Origin: an uncultured archaeon | Lineage (GTDB): Archaea; CAYFZR01 | DNA: 64,000 nucleotides | Direction of reading: 5' to 3' | NCBI GenBank assembly: GCA_964347835.1 | Contig: CAYFZR010000065.1 | Coordinates: 19,496 to 83,495 of the forward strand | Shown: piece after piece, positions 6,180 through 63,978 of the stretch | Position numbering within the stretch: the stretch's first letter is position 1 | How the letters are laid out: every line of letters starts with the position of its first letter | The notes under the pieces: model-generated | Databases searched by the model: none | Told to the model about the DNA's origin: nothing | The model's input: only the letters and a program-made list of their open reading frames with translations | Translations under genes and position numbers: made by a program

Positions 6180-6287
6180 TCAGTTCACCTCTGTTTGTAT
6201 TTTTCTGATTAGGATTTACCTGTATAAGAGTGTTACCTCAAAATCTTCTACCCTTATTAATAGTTTCTTTATTTTTCACATCCTTCT

Positions 6288-6523
6288 AGAAGGTGGTAAT
6301 ATTATACTTTATACTGAAATTATCTTATTCTAACCTATCACCCCCTCTCTACACCCCCATATAAAATTTAGAGTAGAGAACAAATATAGAGAAGAAAACG
6401 ACTCATTCGGTACCGTTAATAAAATAATTTTAGGTTAGTTATTATCTTTCTTTTGATCGAACTTTTTTTAAAAGTTCATTGCGGATGGAACGAGCCACAT
6501 TCCATAGCTAGCCACGTTCCATT
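6288..6523 (+). repeat. Copy A of a modular intergenic repeat family (P module + S module + hairpin H module)
   Basis: Contains agaaggtggtaatattatactttatactgaaatta..tatcaccccctctctacacccccatataaa..tttagagtagagaacaaatatagagaagaaaacgactcattcggtaccgttaataaaataatt..gaactttttttaaaagttcattgcggatggaacgagccacattccatagc. Near-identical to 31095-31392 and 56781-57047. Confidence 0.8.
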
Positions 6524-6853
6524 TTAAATAATCAAGTAATTCTCTATTTTTTCAAATATTTCCTCTAATTCATTTAGATCTTCGTCTCCGTTTAGATGGA
6601 ACTCGATGGTAAGGTCGTTTGCTCTCTTATCGTAATGTTTTACGTCTGCTTTTCTTTTCATTTTGTTTTCAAAGAAAGATTTGAGCTTTAATGCTTCCTC
6701 ACAAAAAGGCGTTATGGCCATAAATATGCCTTCAGGAGACACTGTCATGAAAAGAGATAATTCCTTGTTGTTGTATTTAAGATCAATAGAATATTGCACC
6801 ATGTTGGGATAAGGTGATAGCCTCCTTATATCGATGATTTCGATTGTTTTCAT
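6524..6853 (-). CDS. Hypothetical protein
   Basis: 109 aa ORF. Its stop codon abuts the hairpin end of repeat copy A. Confidence 0.4.
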   Translation of the reverse strand: MKTIEIIDIRRLSPYPNMVQYSIDLKYNNKELSLFMTVSPEGIFMAITPFCEEALKLKSFFENKMKRKADVKHYDKRANDLTIEFHLNGDEDLNELEEIFEKIENYLII

Positions 6854-9073: not shown

Positions 9074-9117
9074 AAGAATAAAAAATGATATATATTTGTT
9101 CAAACAGATTGTCAGAC

Positions 9118-9813
9118 ATGAAAAAAGCGATTATAATCTCATTGGTCCTTTTGGCTTGTATTGGTTCTGTAAATTCTGCAGAAATCGACTCTCTCTTCGT
9201 ATCAAACAATGTTGTTTACATCTTATCTGATGATACCTTAACTGCTTTAAGCGAAGATGGTATACTCCTCTGGAAAACTAGGGCTAAAAACATACTTACA
9301 AGAGCGAATGGAGTGTTGTATGTTGTTTCAGATGGTTATCTTAAAGCCTTAGATCAGTACTCTGGAGAGGAGATATGGAAACTAAATATAGTTCCCTCTT
9401 ACCTCAGATACTCCAACAACTTACTCTATGCATACAATGGAGAAAAACTCAAAGTTCTGGACAAGAGAGGTTTGAGTATGTGGGAGACGGATGCTAGTTC
9501 TGAACCATTATTTTCCTCCGGAATTATATACTTAAGATCTAATGGCGAAATTTTAGCCTTAAATCAATATACAGGGGAAATATACTGGAGTTTTAAGGAT
9601 ACGGGTTATCCTCTCTTCGTATCAAATAATGTTGTTTACATCTTATCTGATGATACTTTAACTGCTTTAAGCGAAGATGGTATACTCCTCTGGAAAACTA
9701 GGGCTAAAAACATACTTACAAGAGCGAATGGAGTTTTGTATGTTGTTTCAAATGGGTATCTTAAAGCCTTAGATCAATACTCTGGAGAGGAGATATGGGA
9801 AATTCTCGTTTAG
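9118..9813 (+). CDS. Secreted PQQ-like beta-propeller repeat protein with recent internal duplication
   Basis: The track ORF starts at 9085, but the signal peptide begins at the Met at 9118 (MKKAIIISLVLLACIGSVNSA). Repeats of the G.LYVVS.GYLKALDQYSGEEIW type. Confidence 0.6.
   Translation: MKKAIIISLVLLACIGSVNSAEIDSLFVSNNVVYILSDDTLTALSEDGILLWKTRAKNILTRANGVLYVVSDGYLKALDQYSGEEIWKLNIVPSYLRYSNNLLYAYNGEKLKVLDKRGLSMWETDASSEPLFSSGIIYLRSNGEILALNQYTGEIYWSFKDTGYPLFVSNNVVYILSDDTLTALSEDGILLWKTRAKNILTRANGVLYVVSNGYLKALDQYSGEEIWEILV
9189..9798 (+). repeat. Intragenic direct repeat: two near-identical segments of about 190 bp (9189-9378 and 9609-9798), period 420 bp
   Basis: ctctcttcgtatcaaa.aatgttgtttacatcttatctgatgata.cttaactgctttaagcgaagatggtatactcctctggaaaactagggctaaaaacatacttacaagagcgaatggagt.ttgtatgttgtttca.atgg.tatcttaaagccttagatca.tactctggagaggagatatgg occurs twice, differing at only a handful of positions. 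Confidence 0.85.
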
Positions 9814-16606: not shown

Positions 16607-16903
16607 GACCTTCAAAAAGGTCGATCATTTGGTCGAATTCGCTAACGCGAATTCAACAACTCAAATAGCAATAAACGTGCGATCTTCAAAACGCTCAACA
16701 ATCGAGGATTCTCGTGAGAGGTCGATCATTCGATAACATCGCAACCTTTTATAAAGGTTGAACAAAGGCACCACCTCCACCTTTTATAAAGGTGGAGCAA
16801 TGCTACTCCTGTTTGAGATGTTGAATTGCGAAGCAATTCGACCTGATGATCCACCTTTCAGAAGGTGGAATTCGACCTGATGATCCACCTTTCAGAAGGT
16901 GGA
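16607..16903. repeat. Array of about eight short hairpins/palindromes, including a 34-bp tandem direct repeat, directly upstream of tRNA-Ile
   Basis: cgacc-ttcaaaaa-ggtcg, gaattcgc-taac-gcgaattc, caacc-ttttataaa-ggttg, ctccacc-ttttataaa-ggtggag, gaattgc-gaa-gcaattc, and attcgacctgatgatccacctttcagaaggtgga x2 (16836-16903). Confidence 0.75.
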
Positions 16904-16907
16904 GGTT

Positions 16908-16982
16908 GGGCTCGTGGCTCAGACTGGTTAGAGCGTCCGGCTGATAACCGGGAGGTCCGGGGTTCAAATCCCCGCGGGCCCA
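16908..16982 (+). tRNA. tRNA-Ile (anticodon GAU)
   Basis: Cloverleaf read by hand: acceptor GGGCTCG/CGGGCCC, anticodon stem TCCGG/CCGGG with loop CTGATAA, T-arm CGGGG-TTCAAAT-CCCCG, discriminator A. CCA not encoded. Confidence 0.8.
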
Positions 16983-17088
16983 TCTAAACTTTATATCTGC
17001 TATTTTTAATTCTGGATAGATAAAACATTCGATATGTATCAAAAATATGATAAAACTATTTCGACTATGAACTATGAAGTTGAGTTAA

Positions 17089-23380: not shown

Positions 23381-25852
23381 CTAAGCGTATCTATATTCCA
23401 AGAATCTTCTCAAGAATATTTCAAAGAAAAATAAGAAAAGCGCTGCCTTCACTAGTATCTCCCAAATATTTTCCATCTCTGTTTGATATTGTTTTGTTTC
23501 TTTTATATCTTTTAACAGATCTTGTTTTAAAGAGTCTATTTCGTTTGAATCGTAATATTTTCCTCCTGTAACTGAACAAATCTTTTTTAGTGTCTCTGTA
23601 TCAGGCTCAAGTTCTCTTATCTCTACAGGATAGTTAATGGTCATTCCTCCCTCATCTGAATACTCTTTGTTTCCGTAAGCCTTAAACAAAAAAACTCCTG
23701 TATGATTTGATCTTAAGGAAGATTGATACAGGTTAAGATCGATTTGCTCTACTTTCAAAGCCTTTTTCTCTGTTGTTTCGTACAATTCAACCTCTTTCAT
23801 CGGAAAGGAAGTCACTATATTTAATATCATGTTTTCACCTAATTCTGAGTTTCTGGCAATAATTTTAATCGGTTTTCTCCATTCTAAATCTCCTACTACC
23901 CAGTTGACTATGTTCTTCATTAATTTAGGATGATCTTTCCATGCTACAAAAGGATAGCCCCATGAATTGCCGTTGTCTGTAGTGTAAGAGGCGACTCTTC
24001 CTAATCCATAATGCCAGACGGTAAGAATCATGTTCATATCATCAGTAGCAATCAAAGATTGTGCTCCTGCTTTTTTACTCACCAAATTAAGTCCACTAAC
24101 ACTGGAAGAAATCTCGATGTCTCTGGTTATGAAGTGTTCTTCATCCAGGATCTGTAAGGAGTAGTGTTCTTTTCTTTCTTCCTCTTTCTTCCCGAAGAGG
24201 AAACTAAGTCTCTGAACGGCTGTGGGTCTGAAGTATTCTCCTCCTGTTTTTCTTGCCAAAGTTTGCATGAAGGGTTCATAGGTATCGCTGCCTACACCAA
24301 CCGTATAAATTGTGTTTCCGGAAGTTTCTGCATACTGAACAGCCTCCTCTGGAAATGCGGTAAGACCGTCGGATATCAAAACTATGTATTTCTTTCCCGC
24401 AAAACCAGAAAGTAATTGATTTGCTCTTATCAATGCGGGTGTTATGTAAGTTCCTTCGCCAGAGCTTAATCTAGATACTTTCTCCGTTAGATCCTCCATA
24501 TCTGTGACAAGAGAGAACTCTTTTATTAGGTATGGATCCACATCAAAAGCCAAAACACCAACGTAATCTCCTGGATCAAGATCATTTATTAGATTTATTG
24601 TAATTGCCTTCTCGAGATCTAATTTCGATGTTCCTCCAAAGGCTTGTCCTGTGCTACCGGAAATGTCTAAAACAAAGATGATTCCTAACTTTTCTTTCCT
24701 CTGCTTAGGCTCAGGAGATGATGTAACTGGCAATATCTTTTCAAAGGAACTTTTATAGTAAGAGCCATAATCAAAGGAATTATCTCCGCCAATTACCAAT
24801 AATCCTCTGCCTTCTCTTACATAACCCCTTAATTCGTTTATCGTCGAATGTGAAATTCGATTAACGGGAATATTATCAAGTATAATTGCATCGTATTTAT
24901 TTAAATCATCAATAGATGTACTAGAGGTCTTAGTTAAAATATAATCTTTCCCAATTTCACCTATAATATAATTTGAACTCTCTGAAGAAATGTAAATTAT
25001 TTTTGGTCTCTCAACAATCTCTAAAGACGCGTATCTTACATTGTTATACGGAAAGTAATCGTTTTTAGGATCTATGATTGCTTTTATTACATAGAATCCT
25101 TCTTCGCTAGTTTTGTACGAATACTCGATTATTTCTGTCTCTTTTTCTTGAATTTTATGGGTATCATATATCAATTTATCATCTATAAACAATTTGAAGT
25201 CATATTCAGCCGTTAAATTTCCAAAATTTTTTACGTGTACTTCTATGTCAAAAGAACTTCCTGGATAACTCTTTTCGGGTACTATTAATTCTTCTACTGC
25301 TACCTCATTCCTAACGTTAGACACTCCAAGAGCATAAATGCCAATGTCCCTCTCTTTCGCAATCATGCTCGCTTCAATTGGATCTTTGCCGTAATTATTT
25401 TGACCATCCGACACAAGCAGGATCTTTCCTGCTTCCATCTTTGATATTGTCTCTTGGATCGTGTTCCCGATAGAAGTCCTGTACTCATGGGAAAAGGGTA
25501 TTAATTTGACACTGTCCTTACCGATCTTCTCTCCAAAGAAATTATATAAATTCTTTGTCTGGTTATTGAAATTATACAACTCCATACTCCTCGATTCATC
25601 CAGCAGAATATAGATGGTAGGATTTTCTACAATAGTCCTTTCAAAAGAGTATATTCCTATGATAGACAAAATTACTAGTGTAAGTACTATAATTCTTAAA
25701 AAAAAAATTAAAAACCTCTTATTTCCTAAAAAAGCCTTATCAGATCTCTGTAATAAGTAGTAATATAGGATCGCTAAGGGTACAAGCAACAACAACCAAG
25801 GTTTACTTCCTATGAAGATACTCATCTCAAATTCTCCGTATAATACATCCAT
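23381..25852 (-). CDS. BatA-like membrane-anchored von Willebrand factor A (VWA) domain protein
   Basis: 823 aa. N-terminal TM helices, VWA MIDAS motif (IIFVLDISGSTGQ) and a large C-terminal extension. Last gene of the MoxR/DUF58/VWA operon. Confidence 0.75.
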   Translation of the reverse strand: MDVLYGEFEMSIFIGSKPWLLLLVPLAILYYYLLQRSDKAFLGNKRFLIFFLRIIVLTLVILSIIGIYSFERTIVENPTIYILLDESRSMELYNFNNQTKNLYNFFGEKIGKDSVKLIPFSHEYRTSIGNTIQETISKMEAGKILLVSDGQNNYGKDPIEASMIAKERDIGIYALGVSNVRNEVAVEELIVPEKSYPGSSFDIEVHVKNFGNLTAEYDFKLFIDDKLIYDTHKIQEKETEIIEYSYKTSEEGFYVIKAIIDPKNDYFPYNNVRYASLEIVERPKIIYISSESSNYIIGEIGKDYILTKTSSTSIDDLNKYDAIILDNIPVNRISHSTINELRGYVREGRGLLVIGGDNSFDYGSYYKSSFEKILPVTSSPEPKQRKEKLGIIFVLDISGSTGQAFGGTSKLDLEKAITINLINDLDPGDYVGVLAFDVDPYLIKEFSLVTDMEDLTEKVSRLSSGEGTYITPALIRANQLLSGFAGKKYIVLISDGLTAFPEEAVQYAETSGNTIYTVGVGSDTYEPFMQTLARKTGGEYFRPTAVQRLSFLFGKKEEERKEHYSLQILDEEHFITRDIEISSSVSGLNLVSKKAGAQSLIATDDMNMILTVWHYGLGRVASYTTDNGNSWGYPFVAWKDHPKLMKNIVNWVVGDLEWRKPIKIIARNSELGENMILNIVTSFPMKEVELYETTEKKALKVEQIDLNLYQSSLRSNHTGVFLFKAYGNKEYSDEGGMTINYPVEIRELEPDTETLKKICSVTGGKYYDSNEIDSLKQDLLKDIKETKQYQTEMENIWEILVKAALFLFFFEIFLRRFLEYRYA

Positions 25853-27741
25853 TCAATAAGTAGGAATAGCATCACAAAAGAAAGTATGAAAGGATACCAA
25901 TTTCTTTTGTTCTCAGTCAAAGTAACATATTCCGGTTTTTGAATCAATTTATCGTCTGATACAGTTTGTTTAAACGCAATATCCGATTCTTTTTCATTCA
26001 GGAGATTAACCGCGAGATATTCTCTCAAATTATTATGCTCAATTGTATATATGCCAATATGCTCTAAAGGGAATGGTGCAGAAGGTTCTAGGGAAAAGGC
26101 TTTCCCGTTTGGATCGGTTATGCGAACTTTTGAGTTCGCGGTAATTATTGAACCAGTTAGAATATTCTTCTCAGGGATGATTCCTTGATTCTTGCTGCTC
26201 CACTCTAGGGCATGATACCAATATACCGGAAATGAAGGATCATACTGAAAATTGGTCGTTTTATCTGGATAGAAACTCAAGAAAACTACTTTACCACCCG
26301 AAATTCTTAATGAAATGAGAGAATTTCTATCTAATGATTCTGCTATTGTTAATGAGCCATTTTTTGGATTATTGCTAACGTATCTTTCAACAAAAACATT
26401 CTTGAACGAAGTATCCTTTAGTATTGAGTGTTCGCCTACCGGTATGACGTCGGTTTTTTCTTTTACAATGCTTTGAAGATTTACTGGCAATACCTCTTTG
26501 ATCAAACTTAAGGCGCGGAGATCACTTCCAAGGACTATTAAACCGCCGCCTCTTTTTACATAACCGCTGAGATCTTTATCAATTCCAGGTAAAAGATGAT
26601 CATGAGGTACGTCCCCGAAGATTATGACGTCAAAATCATCTAATTTTGAAGGTATCACTGGTGGTTGTGCTAAATCTAATTTTATATTCGGTAGAGATTC
26701 TAATGCCAACCTTAAATAAGGAGGTGCTTCTTTTCTTTCTATGAGTAATACTTTATGCATCCTTATCTCAGGTAATATGCCAAAAGCAACATTATCCGTT
26801 TCTAAATCGTCTTTTGCATCGATTGAAAATCTTAGGGTGTGAACACCGAGTGAAGTAGAACCAGTATAAGTAATTGATTTTGCCTCCTTAGAAGACAAAA
26901 AAATCTTTTCCGAGTGAATTAGTTTTCCATCCAAGTATATATTAGCCTTTAATTCTTCTGATTTTTCTTTGTAGTTTTTTATTCTTAAAAATGTGTAGAA
27001 TACATTCAAATTATTTGTATCTCTCGTTACAGTTGCGCCGACTATGCCAACATTCTCTCCCCTATTATTGATATCTACAAAGGAGGTGTCTATGCCGTTA
27101 GCCCTCAATAAGTTTGTTGCATCTTCGACAGGATAACCTAGTTGACTGTAAGAAATGTCCGATAGTATGTATACAGTTTTTTTCCCTTCTTTGCCCTCTA
27201 ATATAGTATTTGCAAGCAAAATCGCATCTCCGATATTTGTCTTAGTAGATTTGCACTCGAGAGAATTAACAGTATTTTTGATATCTTTATAATTATCTGT
27301 AGGCTGAACTATTAATTCTGGAGTATTTTTAGCAAATATTATACCAATATTCCCATCTATGGAGTCTAAAAGAGAAAATAATAATTTTTTTGCCTTGTCA
27401 AATCTTTTCTCCCCAAAATCCTTTGCATTCATGCTTGCAGAAGCATCTATGATAAATATTACTTCGTCTAATTTTTTTTTTGCTCCGATTGTATATGGAT
27501 TAGCCAGCGATAGTACCAATAGACCTAATATAAAGAGTTGAAGAAGTAAAAGGGGTAGTTGGGTTATCCTTTTTATTGAAAGTTTTTTCTCCCTCTCCTT
27601 TATACCCTTTAGGAAGAACATGAGCGTGGAGAAACTTTCCTTCTTGGTTTTTTGCCATATCAAATAAAGTATTACTACAGGAATCCAAATTAATAAAAAA
27701 ATCAGGGCATTGGGATTTGCGATATCAGCCATGAGAAGCAC
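25822..27741 (-). CDS. VWA-domain membrane protein (BatB-like)
   Basis: 639 aa. N-terminal TM helices, MIDAS motif (VIFIIDASASM) and a C-terminal TM anchor. Confidence 0.7.
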   Translation of the reverse strand: MLLMADIANPNALIFLLIWIPVVILYLIWQKTKKESFSTLMFFLKGIKEREKKLSIKRITQLPLLLLQLFILGLLVLSLANPYTIGAKKKLDEVIFIIDASASMNAKDFGEKRFDKAKKLLFSLLDSIDGNIGIIFAKNTPELIVQPTDNYKDIKNTVNSLECKSTKTNIGDAILLANTILEGKEGKKTVYILSDISYSQLGYPVEDATNLLRANGIDTSFVDINNRGENVGIVGATVTRDTNNLNVFYTFLRIKNYKEKSEELKANIYLDGKLIHSEKIFLSSKEAKSITYTGSTSLGVHTLRFSIDAKDDLETDNVAFGILPEIRMHKVLLIERKEAPPYLRLALESLPNIKLDLAQPPVIPSKLDDFDVIIFGDVPHDHLLPGIDKDLSGYVKRGGGLIVLGSDLRALSLIKEVLPVNLQSIVKEKTDVIPVGEHSILKDTSFKNVFVERYVSNNPKNGSLTIAESLDRNSLISLRISGGKVVFLSFYPDKTTNFQYDPSFPVYWYHALEWSSKNQGIIPEKNILTGSIITANSKVRITDPNGKAFSLEPSAPFPLEHIGIYTIEHNNLREYLAVNLLNEKESDIAFKQTVSDDKLIQKPEYVTLTENKRNWYPFILSFVMLFLLIEWMYYTENLR

Positions 27742-28573
27742 CCAAGAATTCTAAAAAGACGTCATGAATAGGTTGATCCGTTGTTGTAAGGAAGTAATCT
27801 GCGTTAACGTCCCTGCAGAATCTATTTATTGATCGAATGTGTCTCTCCACTTCTTTGGAATATCTATCAATTGCTTTTCTTGTTAATGATATCCTTTGTC
27901 TTTCATGGGTCTCGAGATCTAAAATTTCGTAGTCTCCCTTAAAAGGTAAAAATATCTCTCCTTTATCTAAAATTTGAAATAAGATTATATCATTTCCTTT
28001 AGCCGCTAGTTTGTAAAGAGACCACCTTATAGTCTCTAAATCCGAGAGAAGATCGGATATTAGGATTATGAGCCTCTTTCCTTGGGTAATCTGCATATAT
28101 TCTTTAACAACCTTCTTTAAATCCGTCGTTCCTCGGGATTCTATCTTTTCCAACGCGCTTAGTATTCTTATGAACTGCCTTCTACCTCTTCTAGAATGTA
28201 TTCTTGTGTTTAAATGATCGGAAAAGGTGAATAAACCTACTCTATCGTTATTTTGTGCCACAAGATAAGAAAAACCTGCTGCAGATTTTGTTGCATAATC
28301 TAATTTCGATACAGAATCAGAAGAGTAAAGCATGCTATTGCTCGTGTCCAATAATACATGGGCAATGATTTCTCTTTCTTCTTCATATCTCTTCACGTGT
28401 AATTTTTCAGTTCTGGCAAAAATCTTCCAATCAACAGTCTTGTAGTCGTCTCCCGGCGAATATTCTCTATAGTCGACTATTTCCAACCCTTTTCCCTTTA
28501 GTTTTGATCTATGTTCTCCAGAATAAGCAGTAATCATCTTCTTTTTAACCATTAAGTTTAATTTTTTAAGCAT
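27725..28573 (-). CDS. DUF58 protein (MoxR-associated)
   Basis: 282 aa with the hallmark DUF58 motif DYREYSPGDDYKTVDWK. Confidence 0.8.
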   Translation of the reverse strand: MLKKLNLMVKKKMITAYSGEHRSKLKGKGLEIVDYREYSPGDDYKTVDWKIFARTEKLHVKRYEEEREIIAHVLLDTSNSMLYSSDSVSKLDYATKSAAGFSYLVAQNNDRVGLFTFSDHLNTRIHSRRGRRQFIRILSALEKIESRGTTDLKKVVKEYMQITQGKRLIILISDLLSDLETIRWSLYKLAAKGNDIILFQILDKGEIFLPFKGDYEILDLETHERQRISLTRKAIDRYSKEVERHIRSINRFCRDVNADYFLTTTDQPIHDVFLEFLGASHG

Positions 28574-28603
28574 TTTATAAAAACTAGGATCGTATAAACT
28601 CAG

Positions 28604-29566
28604 TTATGACACCTCTTCAATAATAGAGTTTATAACCCCGTCAGTTGAGGTTCCTTGCGCCTCAGCCTCGAAATTTAATATCAGTCTGTGTCTTAGCACA
28701 GGGAATATCATCTTTTTTATGTCCTCTCCGCTTACATAGGTTCTTCCTTGAATTAGGGCTCTTGCTTTGGAGGCTAAAATTAAGGAAATTGAAGCTCTTG
28801 GGGAGGCACCATATTCGATATATTTTTTCGCTACATTGCTTGCATTGTTAGAATTAGGTCTTGTAGCGGCGACTAGGGAAACTGCATATTCTTCTATGTC
28901 GCCTGCTATTGGTATCATTCTCACCAATTTTTGCAGTTCGATCAAGTCATTCCTACCCAATATCTTTCTTACTGTCGGCTCTTGACCCTTCGTATAGAGT
29001 CTAACTATATCCATCTCCTCTTCGCGCTCGGGATAGTCGATTAGAATCATTTGCAAGAACCTGTCTAACTGCGCTTCAGGCAGAGGGTAGGTTCCTTCCA
29101 TCTCAATAGGATTTTGTGTAGCCAAGACCAAAAATGGGGATGGTAGCTTAAATGTAGTTTTTCCTACGGTTACTTGTCTTTCTTGCATACACTCAAGTAG
29201 AGCGCTCTGAGATTTTGGCGTAGCCCGATTAATTTCATCAGCAAGGACGATATTCGTAAAAATCGGACCCTCAGAAAAAACAAACTTTTTTGTTTTGGTT
29301 ATTTTGTCTTCCTCTATTAAGTATGTTCCTGTGATATCCGAAGGCATTACATCAGGAGTACATTGTATCCTGCTAAATTCTAAGTCTAATACTTTTGAGA
29401 AGATTCTTATCATCATTGTTTTCCCCAGACCTGGTAATCCTTGGAGAAGCGCATGGTTGTCAGAAAGTAAGGTTATGAGCAATTGTTCGACTACCTCTTC
29501 TTGCCCTACGATTGCTTTAGATGCCTCCTTCTTTATCCCATCGAAGATTTCACGAGAGACTCTCAT
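28604..29566 (-). CDS. MoxR-family AAA+ ATPase
   Basis: 320 aa. Walker A (GLPGLGKT), Walker B/sensor region (VLADEINRATPKSQSALLECMQERQVTV). Confidence 0.9.
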   Translation of the reverse strand: MRVSREIFDGIKKEASKAIVGQEEVVEQLLITLLSDNHALLQGLPGLGKTMMIRIFSKVLDLEFSRIQCTPDVMPSDITGTYLIEEDKITKTKKFVFSEGPIFTNIVLADEINRATPKSQSALLECMQERQVTVGKTTFKLPSPFLVLATQNPIEMEGTYPLPEAQLDRFLQMILIDYPEREEEMDIVRLYTKGQEPTVRKILGRNDLIELQKLVRMIPIAGDIEEYAVSLVAATRPNSNNASNVAKKYIEYGASPRASISLILASKARALIQGRTYVSGEDIKKMIFPVLRHRLILNFEAEAQGTSTDGVINSIIEEVS

Positions 29567-30501
29567 TACTTCTCTACCTCTGCCAATTTCTCAAAGTATC
29601 TTTCGGCGATTTCTTTGTACTCGAAAACAATCTCCTCGCTATAGTACCTAGACGGTTCAGTCTCACCAACTTGAATATTTGTCATCTCTTTAGGACCGAA
29701 ATCTTCTTTTTCTATCCTATCTCCTCCAATTTCAGTGCCTTCTCCTCTTTTAATCTCAACTTTCACTTCTTCACCTTCTAGGGGCGCCCTGCTCTCTTCT
29801 CCGAATATATTTTCTCTTTGGCTATAAGTTCCGATTTTGCCTTCGCCTACGATTCCTTTTTCTCCAGTAGTTAGACCCAAGCCAGACAATATGTTATTGC
29901 ACGCTTTTCCTACCTTTGATAAAAGTCCAGTACTGATACTACCTTGATCTTCACCTAAGCCGGGCGCATTTGAATCGAAAACTCCCTTTTTCTGTAAAAT
30001 TGTTCCGTAACCAAGAACTTCAATCTCAAGATACTTGGGAGTGAAAATAAGGAGGATCAGTGCTACCAAACAAAGTATCAAAAAAACCCTCACAAATACT
30101 TTATTCATATCCACCAAGAGATTAAAGTCAAAATTGTCCAAGGATGTTTGCACATCTATGATTAATCTATTGACAAAATGATTTTCTTTCCATTCTTTGG
30201 CGTTGTCGTGGGCTGTTCTCAACTTTTCGCTTAACTCTGAGAAGTTTTCTTCGATCAATAATAAAAAGTTAATAGATCTATTTTTAAGTCTCTTAACGTA
30301 CAAGAAAATACCTGTAATAGTAAGGAAAAGAAATATAATATGAAATTCGTTAAAATTCAGCCTCGAAAGGAGAATAATAATGGAAAGCACGAGAAATATA
30401 ATGACGGCATCTAATATACTTTCATAAAAAATTATTTTTGCATAATCCTCTCTCATTAATTCTACTCTCTTAACGAGTTTGCTTCCAGCGTCCATGATCA
30501 T
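29566..30501 (-). CDS. Membrane protein, first gene of the MoxR/DUF58/VWA operon
   Basis: 311 aa, two to three TM segments plus a Gly/Glu-rich tail. Adjacent to moxR as in Bat-type operons. Confidence 0.4.
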   Translation of the reverse strand: MIMDAGSKLVKRVELMREDYAKIIFYESILDAVIIFLVLSIIILLSRLNFNEFHIIFLFLTITGIFLYVKRLKNRSINFLLLIEENFSELSEKLRTAHDNAKEWKENHFVNRLIIDVQTSLDNFDFNLLVDMNKVFVRVFLILCLVALILLIFTPKYLEIEVLGYGTILQKKGVFDSNAPGLGEDQGSISTGLLSKVGKACNNILSGLGLTTGEKGIVGEGKIGTYSQRENIFGEESRAPLEGEEVKVEIKRGEGTEIGGDRIEKEDFGPKEMTNIQVGETEPSRYYSEEIVFEYKEIAERYFEKLAEVEK

Positions 30502-30543
30502 CTTTTTATATATTCCTTTATTTTTATATAGTGTTGGGGTACT

Positions 30544-31092
30544 ATGAAGAGAAATGTTAACACGTATTTGATGGTAATAAACATCGTCTTAATATTTTCA
30601 CTGGTATCCATGGGTGTATACTCCGGCATTCAGTACAAGCGAGTCAACAAGTTGATAGATGAACTTAACTCGCAGTCAGAAAATCTAATAGTTAGGTTGC
30701 AAGGTAAAGAAGAACAGTTCAACCTTACTTTAAAGACACTAAATATCACCGAAAGTAAGATAGAAGCGCTTAAAGAAAAATACACCAAATTAGATACTGA
30801 GAAGACGAACCTTGAAAAAGTACTACAAAGTACAGTAAACGATTTGGAAAAAACAAAATCTGACTTGAGAGACTTAAGGCAAGACTACAACGAAAAACTT
30901 ATTGAGATTGAGACCTTGAATGCAAGAGTTACAGCCTACAAAAGAGAAAACACCAATCTAAAAGAGTCTTTAAGACAAGTAACACTCGACCTTTATGTGG
31001 CAACAGAGGAAATAGACAATCTGCACGACAAAATAGATGATCTAGAAGAAGATTTAGCGGCTTGTAGAGCAGCGAGTCCACCTCCTCCATGA
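30544..31092 (+). CDS. Membrane-anchored coiled-coil protein
   Basis: 182 aa. N-terminal TM helix, heptad-rich body, PPPP C-terminus. The stop codon directly abuts repeat copy B. Confidence 0.45.
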   Translation: MKRNVNTYLMVINIVLIFSLVSMGVYSGIQYKRVNKLIDELNSQSENLIVRLQGKEEQFNLTLKTLNITESKIEALKEKYTKLDTEKTNLEKVLQSTVNDLEKTKSDLRDLRQDYNEKLIEIETLNARVTAYKRENTNLKESLRQVTLDLYVATEEIDNLHDKIDDLEEDLAACRAASPPPP

Positions 31093-31094
31093 TT

Positions 31095-31392
31095 AGAAGG
31101 GGGTAATAATACATTTTATACTGAAATTACCTTATCCTAACTTATCACCCCCTTTCTAAACCCCTATATAAGAGGAGAAGAGAATAACATTAATTTCATA
31201 ACGTAATTATCCTATCTTACCTTATTAACCCCTTTATACACCTCCATATAAAGAAGGGGGTAAATCACCCCTTTCTAAACCCCCATATAATATTTAGAGT
31301 AGAGAACAAATGTAGAGTAGAAAAGGACTCATTTGGTACCGTTCATAAAATAATTATTTATAATATTGCGGGTGCAGCGAGCCACGCTGCAT
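31095..31392 (+). repeat. Copy B of the modular intergenic repeat family (three P sub-modules + S module + hairpin)
   Basis: agaagggggtaataatacattttatactgaaatta...caccccctttctaaacccctatataa...cccctttatacacctccatataaagaagggggtaaatcacccctttctaaacccccatataatatttagagtagagaacaaatgtagagtagaaaaggactcatttggtaccgttcataaaataatt...ggtgcagcgagccacgctgca. Confidence 0.8.
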
Positions 31393-31523
31393 AGTGTCAA
31401 TTTTTCCAACAAATTTGAAATATGTGCTATTGTCGAAAATGATTTAATAATTTTTCGAAAAATAAATCTGTCTATTTTCCCTCAAATTTGTAAACCAAAA
31501 CTCTATGGCTTAAAAGAGACATA

Positions 31524-56183: not shown

Positions 56184-56314
56184 AAGAAATTTGAAGGTTT
56201 CGTCATCACGTCGATTGCTCTTTTATATTCTTTCATTTTTTAAAAAATTTTATAGATTATTTTTCTTTTCAAAATCAAAAAATAAATACGCAATAATTAT
56301 AGAGTGATATGTGA

Positions 56315-56611
56315 TTGTTAATGAGATTCAGCAAGCAGATGTTAAAAATCTTATTGGTTCTGAGGAAACATCCCGAAGGATTGACTGAAGAGAAGATAAT
56401 TGCAAGGGGGGAAAGATTAGATAAAACGGAAAATGTGCAACTTAGAGCTTTTAAGTCCAGATACAAAAAATCTATCGAAAAATTGGTTTCTCGAGGTCTA
56501 ATAATCAGAAAAAAGAAAAAGTTCAAACTTACGGGAGAAGGTATTGACAGAGCTCAAGAGGCTTACAGCGAAATTAAGGAGTATTTCAAAGAATATCAAC
56601 ATTTGATTTGA
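56315..56611 (+). CDS. Small basic winged-helix-like protein
   Basis: 98 aa (LKILLVLRKHPEGLTEEKIIARGERL). Confidence 0.35.
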   Translation: MLMRFSKQMLKILLVLRKHPEGLTEEKIIARGERLDKTENVQLRAFKSRYKKSIEKLVSRGLIIRKKKKFKLTGEGIDRAQEAYSEIKEYFKEYQHLI

Positions 56612-56780
56612 CAAAGGCGAAAATTTAGAAAAATCATATATTTCGGTTATTGCCGATCGTTGATCGTAAAAAATAAAAATAAATTGTTGATAATTAATTT
56701 TAGAGGGCTTGTGCCCTCTGCCCCCCCCATTTTTCAAGATTTTTCATTGTTTATCAATTAGGTGCAGTTTTTTGATTAAG

Positions 56781-57047
56781 CTTTTTTTAAAAGTTCAAAT
56801 GTAACGAGCCACGCTAGAAGGGGGTAATAATACATTTTATACTGAAATTATGCTATTTTACCTCATCACCCCCTTTCTAAACCCCCATATAAAGAAGGGG
56901 GCAATCGCCCCCTCTCTACACCCCCATATAATATTTAGAGTAGAAAAAGGCTCATTTGGTACCGTTTATAAAATATCTTTCTTTTGATTGAACTTTTTTT
57001 AAAAGTTCATTGCGGATGGAACGAGCCACGTTCCATAGCCACGCTGC
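56781..57047 (+). repeat. Copy C of the modular intergenic repeat family (half-H module + 2 P sub-modules + S module + full H module)
   Basis: ctttttttaaaagttcaaatgtaacgagccacgct-agaagggggtaataatacattttatactgaaatta...caccccctttctaaacccccatataaagaagggggcaatcgccccctctctacacccccatataatatttagagtagaaaaaggctcatttggtaccgtttataaaat...gaactttttttaaaagttcattgcggatggaacgagccacgttccatagccacgctgca. Confidence 0.8.
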
Positions 57048-57050
57048 ATT

Positions 57051-59045
57051 TTATTCATTTTCATTCGTTCTCAAGAGTTCTTTCGCTCTTCTCTCTTTGT
57101 ATTCATAGATGATATCCTCGATTGTGTCTAAATGTTCCATATCTTTTTGTTTTTTATCTTCCAATAGCCAATTCTCAATTTCTTTCTTGAAGAGTTCTGA
57201 ATCTATAACTGCAAAATCGTCAACATGTCTGAGTTTTACCTTATCAGGATCTATTATAGGAATATTCTCTTGTTTAAATACCTCTTCTGCTACGTGTGAC
57301 ATCCCTTTTTTCGCTATGATACATTTTGCGCCTTTCGCCAATGATTTTGCTGTGGAGGCTCCACCTCCACTCACATCCATAATGTATATAACATCGTTAG
57401 AGAGTCCAACTTGGTCTTTTAATTGTTTTATACAGTCTTTAGAGAATGTGTTCAGTATTTTAACTGGTTTTATCTTTTTTGAGGGTTCTAAAGAGTGAAT
57501 TCTTTTTAATCTTTGAAGTTCTTTTGCATATCTTGAGGATCTCTCCTTTTCCTTAATTATTTCTGTTTTTAAATCTTCAATCATTTTTTCTTTTGCTCTA
57601 AGAAGAGTATCTTTTCGTATCTCTATATCTTCCTCTTTTACGATTCTTTCGAGTTTTATTTGTAACTCATTTTTCTCAGAAATTATTTTCTCCTTTTCTT
57701 CTATTAAAAATACGTTTTCTTCCTCTAATCTATCAATTCTCTTTTCTAATTTCTTAATTTTGTTTATAAAATCTTTCAAATCATCTTTTTCTGGGTGCTT
57801 CTCCACTACTTTCTTTGTTTTCTCTTTTTTCTCGGTTACCATATTGACAGCATCTCTCAGCGTGTAGCCTTTTATCGTTAGTTCCTTTATTTTATTAACG
57901 TCCCCCTTGAAACCAATATCTTCTAGTTTACTACTTATCTGTAAAAATTTATTTTTATAAGAATTAAATGCCTTGATGGCAGCTGCTAAAGAGTCTCTCT
58001 GATGGGAATCGTTGGGAGGATGTATTTTCTCTTCCATTATGTAAGCGTTGACAATTTCCCTCTTATCCTGTACGCTTAGTTGATCGTGAGAAATCAACTT
58101 AGCATTAAATATTGCTGATATCTTTTCAATCTGTTTTGGAGGAGGGTGGATATCTGTTGTTACTATCACAGGAGTGCCGAATTTTCCTACAAAATTTATT
58201 ATGTCGCTTCTTGACATATTTTTCATACTTTTGATGGATAAAAGGCGACCATTGAGATCAAGTATTGATAAACCCGTTGTCGTTCCAGGATCTATTCCCA
58301 CAATCAAAGGAGAAGATTGTTTTCTCTTTTCAAATGTTTTCATTCTTGTTGGTTTTACTGTAACCCTGACGTCAGGACCTTTTACTTCTCTTAAAAACTT
58401 CTTAATCTTAGGGTAGGTTGCATAAGCAGTAAATTCGCTTCTAGAATATCCTTGATCTTTGGTTTTAATATTTAAGTCATAGTCAATACTTTTTTCATCT
58501 AAGTTTCGTTTAACCTCTCTTGTAACCTGCTGGATCAGATTGTGAATCTTTCTTCTGTATCTTGCTTGGCTAAATCCCCCCGGTCCAATGCTTCTTGCTC
58601 TACTCACAATGATTTTGGTAGCGTCTTCAATTTGTGCTATTTCTGTTCCTATACCCTTATCTGCGAGTAATGCACATACACAGGCTTCTTCTAATGAAGA
58701 AGCCCTCTCTCCGAGATGGATTCCATATTTTTTAGCGATTTTATGCAGGGGAATTTGTTTCCCAAATGTGCCAGTTACTTGGACGATTCTGGTTTCTGGA
58801 GATAAATTATCCAAAAAACGTTTCAGGCGCCTCCTGTTAGGTACTAATTCATATACGTTATCCGTGGCGAGTATATTCGGCTTTTCTTTGTAAATTAGCC
58901 TTAAAAGTTTGTGATAGCTGACTCTTTCAAAAGAAAAAACGACGCTACCATCTTTTACTCCAACGGCAGAGAAGTATGGTTGTCTTTTTCCTCTAATTGA
59001 GCCGTATACAACATCGACTCCTACTGTGCGCAAATATACCACCAA
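57051..59045 (-). CDS. Archaeal COG2433/DUF460-type protein: RNase H-fold (RuvC/YqgF-like) domain plus long coiled coil
   Basis: 664 aa. IVGIDPGTTTGLSILDLNGRLL (RNase H-like first strand), central Lys/Glu-rich coiled coil, conserved N-terminal domain. Confidence 0.55.
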   Translation of the reverse strand: MVVYLRTVGVDVVYGSIRGKRQPYFSAVGVKDGSVVFSFERVSYHKLLRLIYKEKPNILATDNVYELVPNRRRLKRFLDNLSPETRIVQVTGTFGKQIPLHKIAKKYGIHLGERASSLEEACVCALLADKGIGTEIAQIEDATKIIVSRARSIGPGGFSQARYRRKIHNLIQQVTREVKRNLDEKSIDYDLNIKTKDQGYSRSEFTAYATYPKIKKFLREVKGPDVRVTVKPTRMKTFEKRKQSSPLIVGIDPGTTTGLSILDLNGRLLSIKSMKNMSRSDIINFVGKFGTPVIVTTDIHPPPKQIEKISAIFNAKLISHDQLSVQDKREIVNAYIMEEKIHPPNDSHQRDSLAAAIKAFNSYKNKFLQISSKLEDIGFKGDVNKIKELTIKGYTLRDAVNMVTEKKEKTKKVVEKHPEKDDLKDFINKIKKLEKRIDRLEEENVFLIEEKEKIISEKNELQIKLERIVKEEDIEIRKDTLLRAKEKMIEDLKTEIIKEKERSSRYAKELQRLKRIHSLEPSKKIKPVKILNTFSKDCIKQLKDQVGLSNDVIYIMDVSGGGASTAKSLAKGAKCIIAKKGMSHVAEEVFKQENIPIIDPDKVKLRHVDDFAVIDSELFKKEIENWLLEDKKQKDMEHLDTIEDIIYEYKERRAKELLRTNENE

Positions 59046-59367
59046 TCAGTATGAGTGTATATGGAAAAACTTTCGTTAAAATACGAAAGATTGTTAAATT
59101 TAACATTTCTAATGAAGATATCAAAACTGAAAGAATAACACAAATGTCTCTGCCTCCTTTTCCACGGTGGCCAATTTTTTCCCACTCTGATAATGGTTTT
59201 CTTCTTATTTAATGTTGTCCCGCCACCGACGAAGAAATGGAAAGAAGACTTAAAGAAGAGAAAGAAAGAGGATTAGAGGATAATTAACTCTCTTCAAAAT
59301 CTCTTTTTTTCTGTGTGGTTTAGGTTGTTAACCCGACTGTATAGAGCTAATTCAATAACTGTATATT

Positions 59368-61124
<1,757 letters not shown>

Positions 61125-61239
61125 TCATAAACCTCCCTTCTTTGAAAATCGAAAAATAATAAGTGGCTTTTAATCTAAAATATATATAATTTTTTCGTGT
61201 AATTCTACTAAGACTCGAATCTCTCAAAAAAGAGTATTT

Positions 61240-61297
61240 TTTATTTCAGTATAAAATTATTCTTAATAAATTAGCGTGTGCAGCGAGCCACGCTGCT
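61240..61297. repeat. Partial copy D of the repeat family: inverted P-module fragment plus CGAGCCACG hairpin
   Basis: tttcagtataaaat is the reverse complement of attttatactgaaa. gtgcagcgagccacgctgc is identical to the copy B hairpin. Lies directly after the stop of the 61302-61778 gene. Confidence 0.6.
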
Positions 61298-61301
61298 TAA
61301 C

Positions 61302-61778
61302 TTATCTTCTCTTTCTTGCTTTAACGTGGATAGACCAGCCGAATAAATTTGGAAACCAGTTATAGTAAAATCTGTCATAATCCTTTACATATGTAGGATC
61401 GAACCCAACAAGTCTTAATACTTTCATTAAATCCTTTGGGTGTACTAATTTCGTGTGATAAGGGTTCCAACCGCTTTCCCATTGAATTTTACCTAAAAGA
61501 TATAATATTTTTCGTCTAACGGTGAACATATTCGGCGTTGTGAATTCCAAGATTCCGTCGGATTTTAATATTCTAAAGCATTCTCTGAAGAAATCAATGG
61601 GATGTATCGTAAGATGTTCTAACAATTCAAATGCTAGGATATATTCACAAGAATTATCCTCGAAGGGATAAGGAGTAACGTTTAGATCTAATATTCTATC
61701 CGGCTCAAAATCCGGGTTTATATCTATGTTTATAAACCCTTCTCTCTTTTTCAATCCGCAACCCAGATTTAATTTCAT
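61302..61778 (-). CDS. Class I SAM-dependent methyltransferase
   Basis: 158 aa. Motif I LNLGCGLKKREGFINIDI. Confidence 0.7.
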   Translation of the reverse strand: MKLNLGCGLKKREGFINIDINPDFEPDRILDLNVTPYPFEDNSCEYILAFELLEHLTIHPIDFFRECFRILKSDGILEFTTPNMFTVRRKILYLLGKIQWESGWNPYHTKLVHPKDLMKVLRLVGFDPTYVKDYDRFYYNWFPNLFGWSIHVKARKRR

Positions 61779-61839
61779 CTCTTAACGCCCTAAGTAATCT
61801 GTTTAAATTTTCAATTAGTTATCGTCGTTTTAACTTTCA

Positions 61840-63069
61840 TTAATTTATAGTTTCTTCATATATCTCTATAACTTTAGGAATAATCCTGTCGGGTAAGAAG
61901 TCTTCCAGAGTTTCGTGTCCTAATTCTCCCATCGATCTTGCAGAGTTTTTATCGTATAGCAAATTGCATAAAGCATCTTCGAGTTCCTCCGAGTCTCCTG
62001 GAGTGAAAAACAATCCTGTTTCTCCATTTTTCACCAATTCTGGGCTGCCCCCAGTCTTAGAGGCTATAACGGGTTTTTTAAAAGAATATGACTCCAAAAT
62101 TACTCTGCTTAGAGGTTCTGGAGATGTTGATGGGACGACTACTAGCGATGAGTTAGCATATTGCTCCCAAAGATCCATACCAACTTTTTTGCCCAAAATT
62201 AGAATATTCTCGTTCAGCCTTTTTTTATTGATTTCCTCAATGATTTCTTTTTTGAGAGGTCCAGCACCCAGCATTTTGAATTTAACTGAGGAATCACTTT
62301 TAACAATTCTTTCTGCTGCTTCTACTAATGTTTCTATTCCTTTTCCCCTTATCCACCGTCCTAAAAATAAAACAATTTTTTTAGAATCATCTTCACTGGA
62401 AATTTTTTTGCTTAAGTCTATGAGATTCGGATCTGCCATATTATAAACTTTGGAAATATTTTTTGACGGTAAAATTTTTGAAGAGACGTTTTTGACGAAT
62501 TCACTAACACATATTATCCTATCCGCCGATTCAAGGTATTTTAGACCGATCCTATTATTAAATACGTTTAAAAAGGATTCGAAACTGTAGTGACCTCGAT
62601 TCTTTAAACACTTAATGCATTTTGTAAAGCTAAATTTTTCAAAACAAACTTCATCGTTGTAGATCAATTTGTTGTCCAATGCTGAACATATCCTAGTGTA
62701 ATCGTGTTGGTGATAAATTAACGGCAAACCTGTTAATTTCTTCAAATACCATGGGTTAAAAACAGAATCGAAATGATGTACATGAATCAGATCTAATTTT
62801 TGTTTATCGATTATTTTTTTTGCTCTTTTTAAAAAATTTAACTTCGGTATTGGAGATCTAGGATAAGATGAATAAACGCCATCAAATCTATAAATTTCAA
62901 AATTATCATTAACCTTTTCCCTTTTTTTTGTACCAGGTAGCGCAGAGGTCAAAACTATGTTTTTAATCCCTGCTTTTGATAAATAATAAGAGTAGAGATG
63001 TGCACTCCTCTCCGCGCCCCCTTGATATGGATGGAAATTTTCGGAGATTCTGCATACCGATAAGACCAT
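61840..63069 (-). CDS. Glycosyltransferase family 4 (GT-B fold)
   Basis: Track ORF runs to 63162, but the likely start is MVLSVCRIS at 63069. GGAERSAHL N-terminal motif. C-terminal EX7E-type region (EPLSRVILESYSFKKPVIASKTGGSPELV). Confidence 0.8.
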   Translation of the reverse strand: MVLSVCRISENFHPYQGGAERSAHLYSYYLSKAGIKNIVLTSALPGTKKREKVNDNFEIYRFDGVYSSYPRSPIPKLNFLKRAKKIIDKQKLDLIHVHHFDSVFNPWYLKKLTGLPLIYHQHDYTRICSALDNKLIYNDEVCFEKFSFTKCIKCLKNRGHYSFESFLNVFNNRIGLKYLESADRIICVSEFVKNVSSKILPSKNISKVYNMADPNLIDLSKKISSEDDSKKIVLFLGRWIRGKGIETLVEAAERIVKSDSSVKFKMLGAGPLKKEIIEEINKKRLNENILILGKKVGMDLWEQYANSSLVVVPSTSPEPLSRVILESYSFKKPVIASKTGGSPELVKNGETGLFFTPGDSEELEDALCNLLYDKNSARSMGELGHETLEDFLPDRIIPKVIEIYEETIN

Positions 63070-63264
63070 TGAAAAGCCCTCCCACCAGCAAATATATAAT
63101 TGAATTATCTTAATAATTGCGCATATTAGAAAGTTATGTGAGGTTAATAAATTTTTTTGCATCTATTCAGATGTAAAGAACCGTCTTCAAGGGATAGATA
63201 AACTTTAGGAGGCTAAAAAGAACAGGCTGAGGAAATGAAATTTTTAATCTCTTAAAAAGATGAT

Positions 63265-63978
63265 TCAGAGAAAGTCTTTCTCTAATTTTGCCATCTTTTT
63301 TATCAGTTCAGACGTATCTATCAGGTCCTTCACGCTGGAAGAACTAACTTTAAGTAGTCTTACGGTTTCTATGGCTGTGAAAAAAGACCATAGGTCTTGA
63401 TCTAGATCATACATTCTAATTTTATTTTTAAAATCGCCGATAGTCTCTTTTTCTAAGAGATTTTTCCTCTCGTCATTTAGTTTTGATGATAAAATCTCTA
63501 TACCTTTGCTTATTATCTCACCAATTATCTCTTCTGAAATAATGTTTTCCGGGATTTTAATTTCCCCAATAAACTTATTATCTTCTATATCTTCTTTTGA
63601 AAATTCTAATAAGCCTTTTTTACTTAGTACAGTAAGCATGGAAAACTTTAGAGCCCATTCATGAAGATTTACCAAGAAATTCATTTCTTCCCTTCTAAAA
63701 TATGGAACAACCTCGTACCTTCCGAAATCTTCTCTGCTTTTTTTTACGTCCTCAATAGCTCCAATAATGACGCCTTTTGCTTTTTCTTCGTCTATATATT
63801 TTGTTAAAAAATCTTTTAGACTCTTTCCAATTTTTTCAATCAATAACTTCGAAAAATCGTATTGTTCTTTTGGAAAAGATAATTTAGGCATGTTCTCTAT
63901 CACATCATAACATACAGCAAAATCTTTTATCAATCGAGAAACAGAATCATTTATATCTTCATTAATCGTTGAATACAT
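63265..63978 (-). CDS. Hypothetical protein
   Basis: 237 aa helical ORF. First gene of the minus-strand block 63978 to 60387. Confidence 0.4.
   Translation of the reverse strand: MYSTINEDINDSVSRLIKDFAVCYDVIENMPKLSFPKEQYDFSKLLIEKIGKSLKDFLTKYIDEEKAKGVIIGAIEDVKKSREDFGRYEVVPYFRREEMNFLVNLHEWALKFSMLTVLSKKGLLEFSKEDIEDNKFIGEIKIPENIISEEIIGEIISKGIEILSSKLNDERKNLLEKETIGDFKNKIRMYDLDQDLWSFFTAIETVRLLKVSSSSVKDLIDTSELIKKMAKLEKDFL

Follow-up and report, generated by a model that had tools for sequence, protein, structure and literature searches.

A modular family of non-coding hairpin repeats in a Hydrothermarchaeota lineage and a composite copy at the end of a DUF460 gene

The 64-kb stretch of DNA analyzed here (the window; GC content 36.6%) encodes several archaeal markers: a DUF460 protein, a SAMP/ThiS-TtuA pair, a luciferase-like F420-type enzyme, Ftr, and the C subunit of an A-type ATPase (AtpC). 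Its source is an uncultured Hydrothermarchaeota archaeon. When a collection of genomes was searched with P, one of the repeat motifs described below, matches were found only in a metagenome-assembled genome (MAG), Candidatus Hydrothermarchaeota archaeon b3.sp1_bin.60. The DUF460, Ftr and AtpC proteins of the window are 82%, 91% and 83% identical, respectively, to those of this MAG, and synteny between the two spans positions 46.4 to 59 kb of the window; thus, the MAG represents a sister species (hereafter, the sister genome). A metagenome contig (L010) is 99.8% identical to positions 24117-31297.

Four loci in the window (A, B, C, and D; Table 1), 4/4 on the plus strand, carry members of a family of non-coding intergenic repeats, modular in structure and not described before, that belongs to this Hydrothermarchaeota lineage. 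Additional copies are present at four loci of the sister genome (L001, L002, L017, and L018) and in 10 metagenome contigs, L010 among them. The modules follow a fixed order on one strand, (P)n-S-(T)-H, in which T is optional and a full member contains one to three P units. P (16 distinct units, 67 +/-1 nt) forms an 11-bp stem with one bulge. Its inverted 11-nt arms, TAGAAGGGGGT and ACCCCCT(N)TCTA, enclose a conserved interior of 43 nt that holds TTTATACTGAAATTA, and the sequence (A/C)ACCCCCATATAA stands directly after the unit. All 16 distinct P heads start with TAG, which may be either a target or a part of the element. A collapsed form of P (Ps), present in C and B, has the same arms with the interior deleted. 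S is a purine-rich spacer with the end ...CTCATTYGGTACCGTTNATAAAATAATT, and T is an AT-rich hairpin, TTTTGATYGAACTTTTTTTAAAAGTTCR, that carries a run of seven T residues. H, the 3'-terminal hairpin, is composed of TTGCGG(A/G)TG, a stem of 6-8 bp, the loop AGCCA, the returning stem and, usually, a final AG. Some copies also carry a trailing half-site (h), consisting of the H loop and 3' arm. The full copies A, B, L001, and L002 start with a P head, TAGAAGG, and have H at the 3' end only; at the right end, ...CATAG is found in 6 of 11 H copies. Short duplicated heads, in which TAGAAGGGGGTWWTAW adjoins TAGAAGGGGG..., recur in five loci.

The motifs of the family are far more frequent in the window than expected. 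The core motif CGAGCCACR is present five times, always on the plus strand, against 0.2 expected, and the P-end motif CCCCTYTMTAMACCYCYATATAA six times against an expectation of 0. A covariance model of H, run over 165 kb of sequence, detected nothing beyond the 12 copies already known. Viral contigs searched with the P pattern gave 0 matches; a loose H pattern gave 120 matches in viral contigs, which are attributed to chance because none is compatible with the hairpin. The sequence TTTATACTGAAAT was considered as a general promoter motif and rejected: its exact copies are limited to P units and an inverted copy beside D (61243-61255), and, with two mismatches allowed, matches occur at the chance level.

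Table 1. Repeat copies in the window and the parts of copy C
Feature	Positions	Strand	Composition and remarks
Copy A	6287-6522	+	P 6287-6364, S, T 6451-6478, H 6479-6505, AGCT, h 6510-6522
Copy B	31094-31394	+	P, degenerate P 31174-31251, Ps 31252-31290, S, H 31366-31392
Copy D	61251-61297	+	Solo S-tail plus H (GCAGCG type); family D7, 84% to the tail of B
Copy C, whole	56756-57049	+	Composite element
C: possible target duplication, left copy, TTTATCAATT	56750-56759	+	Aligns with the single GTTTACTACTG of the sister genome; tentative
C: outer left fragment, AATTAG-GTGCAG	56756-56767	+	End of an S-tail plus 5' arm of a GCAGCG-type H
C: T, left copy, TTTTGATTAAGCTTTTTTTAAAAGTTCA	56770-56797	+	AT-rich hairpin with T7 run
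C: H', truncated and decayed H, AATGTAACG-AGCCA-CGC	56798-56814	+	Cut where the next element head begins
C: P, long form	56815-56892	+	Family D2, 87-90% to A and B
C: Ps, collapsed P	56893-56931	+	Stem GGGGGC 56897-56902 / GCCCCC 56907-56912, loop AATC, then TCTACACCCCCATATAA
C: S spacer, TTTAGAGTAGA...CTCATTTGGTACCGTTTATAAAATA...	56932-56981	+	Family D8, 88-91% among A, B, and C
C: T, right copy	56982-57009	+	Families D10 and D11
C: H	57010-57036	+	TTGCGG, stem ATGGAACG, loop AGCCA, stem CGTTCCAT; 3'-terminal module
C: h, AGCCACGCTGCAT	57037-57049	+	Loop plus 3' arm of a GCAGCG-type H
C: possible target duplication, right copy, TTTTATTCATT	57049-57059	+	Contains the new DUF460 stop

Copy C had been singled out in an initial annotation of the window, and all of the sequence features quoted there are present. 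Its borders needed adjustment. The left-hand module, which contains ttttgattaagctttttttaaaagttca and aatgtaacgagccacgc, occupies positions 56770-56814, placing the annotated start (56781) 11 nt too far to the right, and the right-hand module (ttttgattgaactttttttaaaagttca, ttgcggatggaacgagccacgttccat, and agccacgctgca) occupies 56982-57048, leaving the annotated end (57047) 1-2 nt short. The two 28-nt AT-rich parts of C are 93% identical and belong to the T-type repeat family D11 (three copies in the window, 89-100% identity), and the left and right ends of C align at 74% over 70 nt. The right T and H together are 97% identical to those of A over 66 nt, and this H scores 54 bits in the covariance model. 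The P of C has the arms TAGAAGGGGGT and ACCCCCTTTCTA around a 43-nt interior that includes TTTATACTGAAATTA, followed by AACCCCCATATAA. The GGGGGC-aatc-GCCCCC hairpin is an exact one, as annotated. However, rather than lying "between" two P sub-modules, it forms the head of the second, a collapsed P that retains the arms GAAGGGGG(C/T)...(G/A)CCCCCT and has lost the 43-nt interior, and it is not a special new feature. Its absence from A is correct, yet a weaker version is present in B (GGGGTaaatCACCCC, 31256-31270). On the minus strand, the Ps of C scores as terminator-like, with a hairpin and then a T-rich tail.

As a whole, C is strongly folded (positions 56755-57060; z = -3.7 on the plus strand and -4.4 on the minus strand). 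In the minimum free energy (MFE) fold of the plus strand, ggtgcag at 56761-56767 pairs with the trailing GCCACGCUGCA (gccacgcugca), and the outer left fragment, which resembles sequences of D (AAATTAGCGTGTGCAGCG) and B (ATATTGCGGGTGCAGCG) and is not present in the aligned sequence L014, pairs with 57038-57048. The composite therein sits between the two halves of a GCAGCG-type hairpin.

The two hairpin modules are conserved in different ways. Among 11 copies of H there are four stem types (GGAACG, GCAGCG, GCAACG, and GGAGCA), and across the helix of eight pairs 88.6% of the cells are paired, compared with 21-49% when the partner strand is slid. Three of the pairs have changed on both sides, whereas the loop is invariant and the 5' flank invariant or nearly so, and the covariation score was reached by none of 500 shuffles. 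Thus, the H stem is maintained by compensating changes around a fixed loop. The wobble pairs do not select a strand: the C.A mismatch of A favors the minus strand, and the G.U pairs of B and D favor the plus strand. Stem types are homogeneous within a species, and the H copies of the sister genome are mostly GCAACG. The P arms, in contrast, show no variation at all among the 16 distinct units, and consequently a covariation test of the P stem is uninformative. These sequence-invariant arms point to a sequence-specific protein that binds double-stranded DNA, an observation that speaks against recognition of a hairpin.

The repeats lie tightly against the ends of genes. Of 13 independent arrays, 8 have their outermost P head within 0-4 nt of the stop of an ORF that is on the same strand and longer than 100 codons, and in at least four of these eight the element's own TAG is the stop of that ORF. 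Copy B starts 1 nt past the stop of ORF 30544-31092. At the other end, H terminates 2-5 nt from the stop of a convergent, minus-strand gene in A, C, and D; A ends 2 nt before the stop of ORF 6524-6853, and D is 5 nt from that of ORF 61302-61778. The T-runs after the H hairpins are short and inconsistent. It is our conjecture that hairpins and T-runs serve as 3'-end or terminator structures for the flanking genes; such a role would explain why the elements have been retained at the orthologous sites A and B.

At C, the sister genome provides an unoccupied counterpart. The initial annotation had let its reading depend on the existence of such an empty site in a related genome, and the sister genome is indeed empty there. 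The distance from the DUF460 stop to the ThiS start is 177 nt in the sister genome versus 867 nt in the window. By pairwise alignment, the difference resides in two window-only segments, one at ~56210-56635, which contains a 98-aa ORF, and the other at 56750-57055, which corresponds to element C including ggtgcag and AGCCACGCTGCA. The DNA between them (56636-56745), with its hairpin GAGGGC-TTGT-GCCCTC, is common to both genomes. Both flanks of C align to L014 and are syntenic, and thus C does not result from a misassembly. The stop of the ancestral DUF460 ORF, TGA (the reverse complement of 56744-56746), persists to the left of C, which places C within the final few codons of that ORF. The new stop is a TAA supplied by C (57051-57053, minus strand), and the DUF460 C-terminus reads ...NENE* in the window versus ...NENSSKL* in the sister genome. 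The element at site C was gained, or precisely lost, since the two species split; we infer the direction to be a gain. For the imperfect, AT-rich 10-nt repeat that flanks C (8/10 matches), a target duplication and a deletion between direct repeats are equally good explanations. Exact look-ups of Ftr, the 660-aa DUF460 protein, and ThiS yielded no records and no strain-level variants of site C.

Both species carry elements at sites A and B, with unequal numbers of T-H and S-H units, although the intergenic DNA around them is now roughly 78-82% identical. Site A reads S-T-H-AGCT-h in the window versus S-T-H-S'-H in the sister genome, where the stop codon of the orthologous gene (109 aa) marks the end of the element. 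In the alignment, the h of A lies opposite the loop and 3' arm of the second H in the sister genome; this h is therefore most readily taken as what an internal deletion of ~45 nt left of a tandem H. At site B, the window has S-H and the sister genome ...h-T-H, and the terminal hairpins of these orthologues, GCAGCG/CGCTGC and GCAACG/CGTTGC, respectively, differ by a compensated change. Since the H copies of the sister genome are mostly of the GCAACG type, replacement or gene conversion of the copy is as likely here as stepwise compensation.

Against this background, C reads as a composite, made up of a tail fragment (T plus a truncated H) followed head-to-tail by a full P-Ps-S-T-H. The initial annotation had described H as present in direct repeats at both ends of C. 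H is not a terminal direct repeat of a single element, because the full copies A, B, L001, and L002 open with a P head and have no H other than that at the 3' end; the left T-H' of C is accordingly the tail of a second member, older or in tandem. The same copies qualify the expectation that the termini coincide with H boundaries. It holds for the right end (A, B, L001, L002, L017, and L018), and the left end of the first four is the P head. Two parses fit the arrangement. In parse (a), a solo GCAGCG-type hairpin received 56768-57036 between its 5' arm and its loop; what the left side lacks, (CG)AGCCACGCTGCA, stands letter for letter on the right. In parse (b), two members stand in tandem and T-H-h is a pre-formed unit, as a 72-nt T-H-h, 94% identical, ends the element in L009 with no GTGCAG upstream of it. 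The ggtgcag match noted earlier is genuine and pairs with the trailing half, and its reading as part of a split hairpin is plausible; this reading is not unique, and the half-site AGCCACGCTGCA is found also in L009, without an upstream partner. The h of C may be the second half of a hairpin that the insertion split, or else what remains of a tandem H. Under both parses, C is a composite formed at or in H hairpins. The suggestion that elements join head-to-tail or insert at H is borne out elsewhere, as such arrangements recur independently: L009 and L005 read H-T-H-h (with one stem in L009 mismatched, GCAACG with CGTTCC), L018 reads H-S'-H, and L017 ..h-T-H. The 8-bp AGCCACGC (56807-56814 and 57037-57044) was considered as a target site duplication (TSD) of the inner element of C; it is H-derived sequence on both sides, and it was rejected because there is no such duplication at A, B, or L001.

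Searches for known families and enzymes were largely negative. At gathering thresholds, Rfam 15 identified only two tRNAs in the whole window, and with E values up to 10 it returned for C and B only unrelated matches of 8-22 bits, none of them common to the copies. ARAGORN found nothing at H, arguing against a tRNA-like or att-site remnant. The other candidates considered for P or H (SECIS, PYLIS, a replication-origin box, C/D or H/ACA sRNA, and G-quadruplex) were set aside, their defining motifs being absent or not general among the copies. No transposase or integrase domain was detected by Pfam in the 50 window ORFs scanned. The family is non-autonomous, and its enzyme would be supplied in trans. 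Neither terminal inverted repeats (TIRs) nor large-scale inverted symmetry were detected when copies A-D were compared with their own reverse complements: the best scores (15-20) all fell short of the 95th percentile reached in 200 shuffles (24-26 for A-C and 20 for D), and the left end, TAGAAGGGGG, bears no relation to the right end, ...CGTTCCAT(AG).

The explanation toward which we lean, with modest confidence, is a mosaic element similar to REP/BIME or BOX, whose H-terminated units are added rarely at H hairpins and at gene 3' ends. New units would be added in one orientation, with the tail defined by H, preferably beside or within an H hairpin already in place and at the extreme 3' ends of genes. 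Such additions would yield head-to-tail and nested composites like C, and deletion or recombination between the repeated H cores would then leave half-sites and mismatched (hybrid) stems. The trans-acting activity would read a folded single strand, either DNA (as in REP/RAYT or HUH enzymes of the IS200/IS605 type) or RNA; a single-stranded hairpin is most likely what is recognized, since the structure and loop of H are fixed and the sequence of its arms is not. A bolder version, which we regard as unlikely, casts H as the recognition structure of an archaeal, hairpin-directed mobilization (HUH/Y1-like on single-stranded DNA, or RNA-mediated), with the P arms binding a second protein.

The most credible of the competing explanations, although itself unlikely, is that the modules are functional RNA or cis-regulatory structures (3'-UTR stabilizers, bidirectional terminators, or a small RNA with an H core) that spread by local duplication and recombination and are kept by selection at gene ends. 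A covarying stem with an invariant loop is classically what marks out a structured RNA or a hairpin bound by protein; the A and B elements persist in both species despite the divergence of their surroundings; heads and tails are tight against stop codons; on the minus strand Ps is a hairpin followed by a T-rich tail, and T has its T7 run; and the fold z-scores given above point the same way. However, the Rfam matches are not consistent between copies even at E values up to 10, the wobble pairs pick no strand, and the T-runs after H are inconsistent. Moreover, at least 14 unlinked loci and an empty site need copying beyond local duplication, and the decayed modules in the window (the second P of B and the H' of C) make clear that many modules are not under selection.

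An improbable alternative takes the family for a conventional MITE that depends on a DDE transposase encoded elsewhere in the genome, and C for a single insertion with a TSD of ~10 bp and short TIRs, TGCAG...CTGCA. This would account for the TTTATCAATT and its right partner TTTATTCATT (57050-57059) that flank C where the sister genome has a single GTTTACTACTG, for the inverted outermost bases of the insertion (GTGCAG / CTGCAT), and for a family that is small, non-coding, and multi-copy; the 11-bp, sequence-conserved inverted arms of P also resemble transposase binding sites. Yet GTGCAG is at the left end of no other copy; A, B, L001, and L002 run from TAGAAGG to H, with ends whose inverted-repeat similarity does not rise above shuffles and 8-nt flanks that are not duplicated; and an imperfect AT-rich 10-mer such as that at C could arise by chance.

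The weakest reading, and a very improbable one, makes H the site of a site-specific recombinase in a cassette- or integron-like system, with circles re-inserted at H by crossover at the AGCCACG core: although there are arrays of short, H-ended units (S-H, T-H, and S'-H), hybrid stems (GCAACG/CGTTCC in L009 and TGTAACG with CGC... at the left of C), and AGCCACGC on both sides of the inner element of C, a core crossover predicts ...GGAACG-AGCCACG-CTGCAT at the right of C, where an extra TTCCAT-AGCCACG is observed, tyrosine-recombinase sites do not resemble these arms of 7-8 bp, which vary in sequence and are separated by a 5-nt spacer, units of ~55-60 nt would make implausibly small circles, no integrase is among the 50 window ORFs scanned, and, where an integron attC site is expected to have a linked integrase and paired core boxes in 55-140 nt, H is 21 nt long and folds around a loop of 5 nt.

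The preferred reading, that of a mosaic element, can be placed beside several known systems. The REP/BIME sequences of Gammaproteobacteria are mobilized by RAYT, a domesticated Y1 transposase of the IS200/IS605 type. Like REP, H is a short extragenic hairpin (~21-27 nt) with compensating stem changes and a fixed 5' motif, lies at gene 3' ends, often between convergent genes, and has no TIRs and no consistent TSD; as in BIMEs, it forms mosaics with other short motifs, varies between strains in module number, and is a hot spot for insertions. Unlike REP, whose 5' motif is GTAG, H has TTGCGG(A/G)TG, and, unlike the alternating or inverted REP pairs of BIMEs, its tandem copies are all direct (L009, L018, and C). 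The archaeal host, the invariant loop, and the much larger, sequence-conserved P unit that accompanies H are further differences. The BOX elements of Streptococcus pneumoniae have the structure boxA-(boxB)n-boxC, and the Neisseria Correia and ERIC repeats are similarly modular. The fixed module order with one module in variable number, (P)n-S-(T)-H, recalls BOX. With all three the present family shares its size (~230-300 nt), its non-coding, intergenic, and strongly folding nature, the lack of an identified transposase and, if our conjecture about terminators is right, the ability to supply terminators or alter neighboring gene ends. However, there is no sequence similarity, and BOX and Correia have inverted terminal modules or TIRs (and, for Correia, a TA duplication), whereas the ends here are unrelated.

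There are also resemblances to IS200/IS605-derived elements, such as the PATEs of Haloquadratum: an archaeal host, no TIR, no clear TSD, and hairpins near both ends. The strict orientation seen in the window recalls the IS200/IS605 type, and TAG at every distinct P head together with ...CATAG at H is reminiscent of its target- and cleavage-site logic. One TnpA, however, normally binds near-identical hairpins at both ends of an IS200/IS605 element. Here the stem of P, GAAGGGGGT/ACCCCCTTC enclosing 43 nt, has nothing in common in sequence or shape with that of H (GGAACG/CGTTCC, for instance, with a loop of 5 nt), and no TnpA or TnpB gene is seen among the window ORFs scanned. By these comparisons, the repeats constitute a new family, with its own architecture, of a broadly familiar intergenic kind that appears to behave like the bacterial mosaic repeats.

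Bacterial mosaic repeats (REP/BIME, BOX, and Correia) are well studied and shape transcript ends, genome rearrangement, and the targeting of insertion sequences. To our knowledge, structure-conserved hairpin repeats of a comparable type have hardly been described in archaea, and we know of none in the Hydrothermarchaeota. At present the family does not point to a new biological principle; if the hairpin-directed proposal for H were true, the system would be an archaeal counterpart of REP/RAYT or a cassette-like system without a described enzyme. The repeats explain why assemblies of this lineage break at these sites, as many contigs end inside P or H. They also remodel gene ends: the final codons of DUF460 have given way to C, and the stop of the gene upstream is provided by the P head in several cases. 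Finally, the family offers a pair of occupied and empty sites, two orthologous sites with module turnover, and an invariant-loop hairpin that something must read, and these together are a starting point from which the responsible enzyme or RNA-binding factor might be tracked down.

A segment of about 430 nt lying upstream of element C, the composite repeat copy held in the last codons of the DUF460 gene, is missing from the sister genome, a syntenic Candidatus Hydrothermarchaeota MAG. Since the 110 nt that part this segment from element C are conserved sequence, the segment is a second indel, independent of C. The ORF that it contains has no Pfam match; judged by its sequence, the encoded protein looks like a winged-helix protein. 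The GC hairpin GAGGGC-TTGT-GCCCTC, with C8 and T5 after it, stands between the segment and element C; in the window it appears to be the terminator of the upstream ORF. The hairpin is conserved in the sister genome, though the upstream ORF is absent there.

Downstream, a block of four genes together with D, a solo copy of the repeat's terminal hairpin, is likewise not present in the sister genome, where just 84 nt lie between DUF460 and the ortholog of window positions 63265-63978. Directly adjoining hairpin D is an exact inverted copy of TTTATACTGAAAT, a motif from the interior of the 67-nt P unit of the repeat family; the remaining exact copies are all on the + strand, within P units.

Features of the window, in window positions
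Feature	Position	Strand	Description
Tandem duplication, ~885 nt	3156-3596 / 4044-4480		80-87% identical
Paralogous ORFs	3269-3844, 4159-4728		carried by the ~885-nt duplication
Direct repeat, 191 nt	9191-9381 / 9611-9801		96% identical, 420 nt apart
PQQ-like beta-propeller ORF	9085-9813		contains both 191-nt copies
Perfect tandem duplication, 34-nt unit x2	16835-16902		unit AATTCGACCTGATGATCCACCTTTCAGAAGGTGG
tRNA-Ile(GAT) gene	16907-16984
Segment missing from sister genome	56210-56635
ORF, basic, 98 aa	56315-56611	+	inside 56210-56635
GC hairpin	56705-56735
Gene block	59046-63264		luciferase-like oxidoreductase, hexapeptide transferase, methyltransferase, GT4 glycosyltransferase
Inverted copy of TTTATACTGAAAT	61243-61255	-

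The ~885-nt duplication also takes in the upstream regions and ribosome-binding sites of its paralogous ORFs, one of which has a weak match to DUF3224. The sister contig L018 terminates inside the ortholog of the beta-propeller ORF. The 34-nt duplication stops only 4 nt short of the tRNA-Ile gene; both of its units have a UGAUGA motif as well as a hairpin (CCACCTT-TCAG-AAGGTGG).

In this lineage, many contigs from metagenomes and MAGs (L003-L012, L017 and L018) begin or end within a P unit or within the terminal (H) or AT-rich (T) hairpin module. Evidently, much of the breakage in assemblies of these genomes is due to the P/H/T repeat family, one of its main causes.
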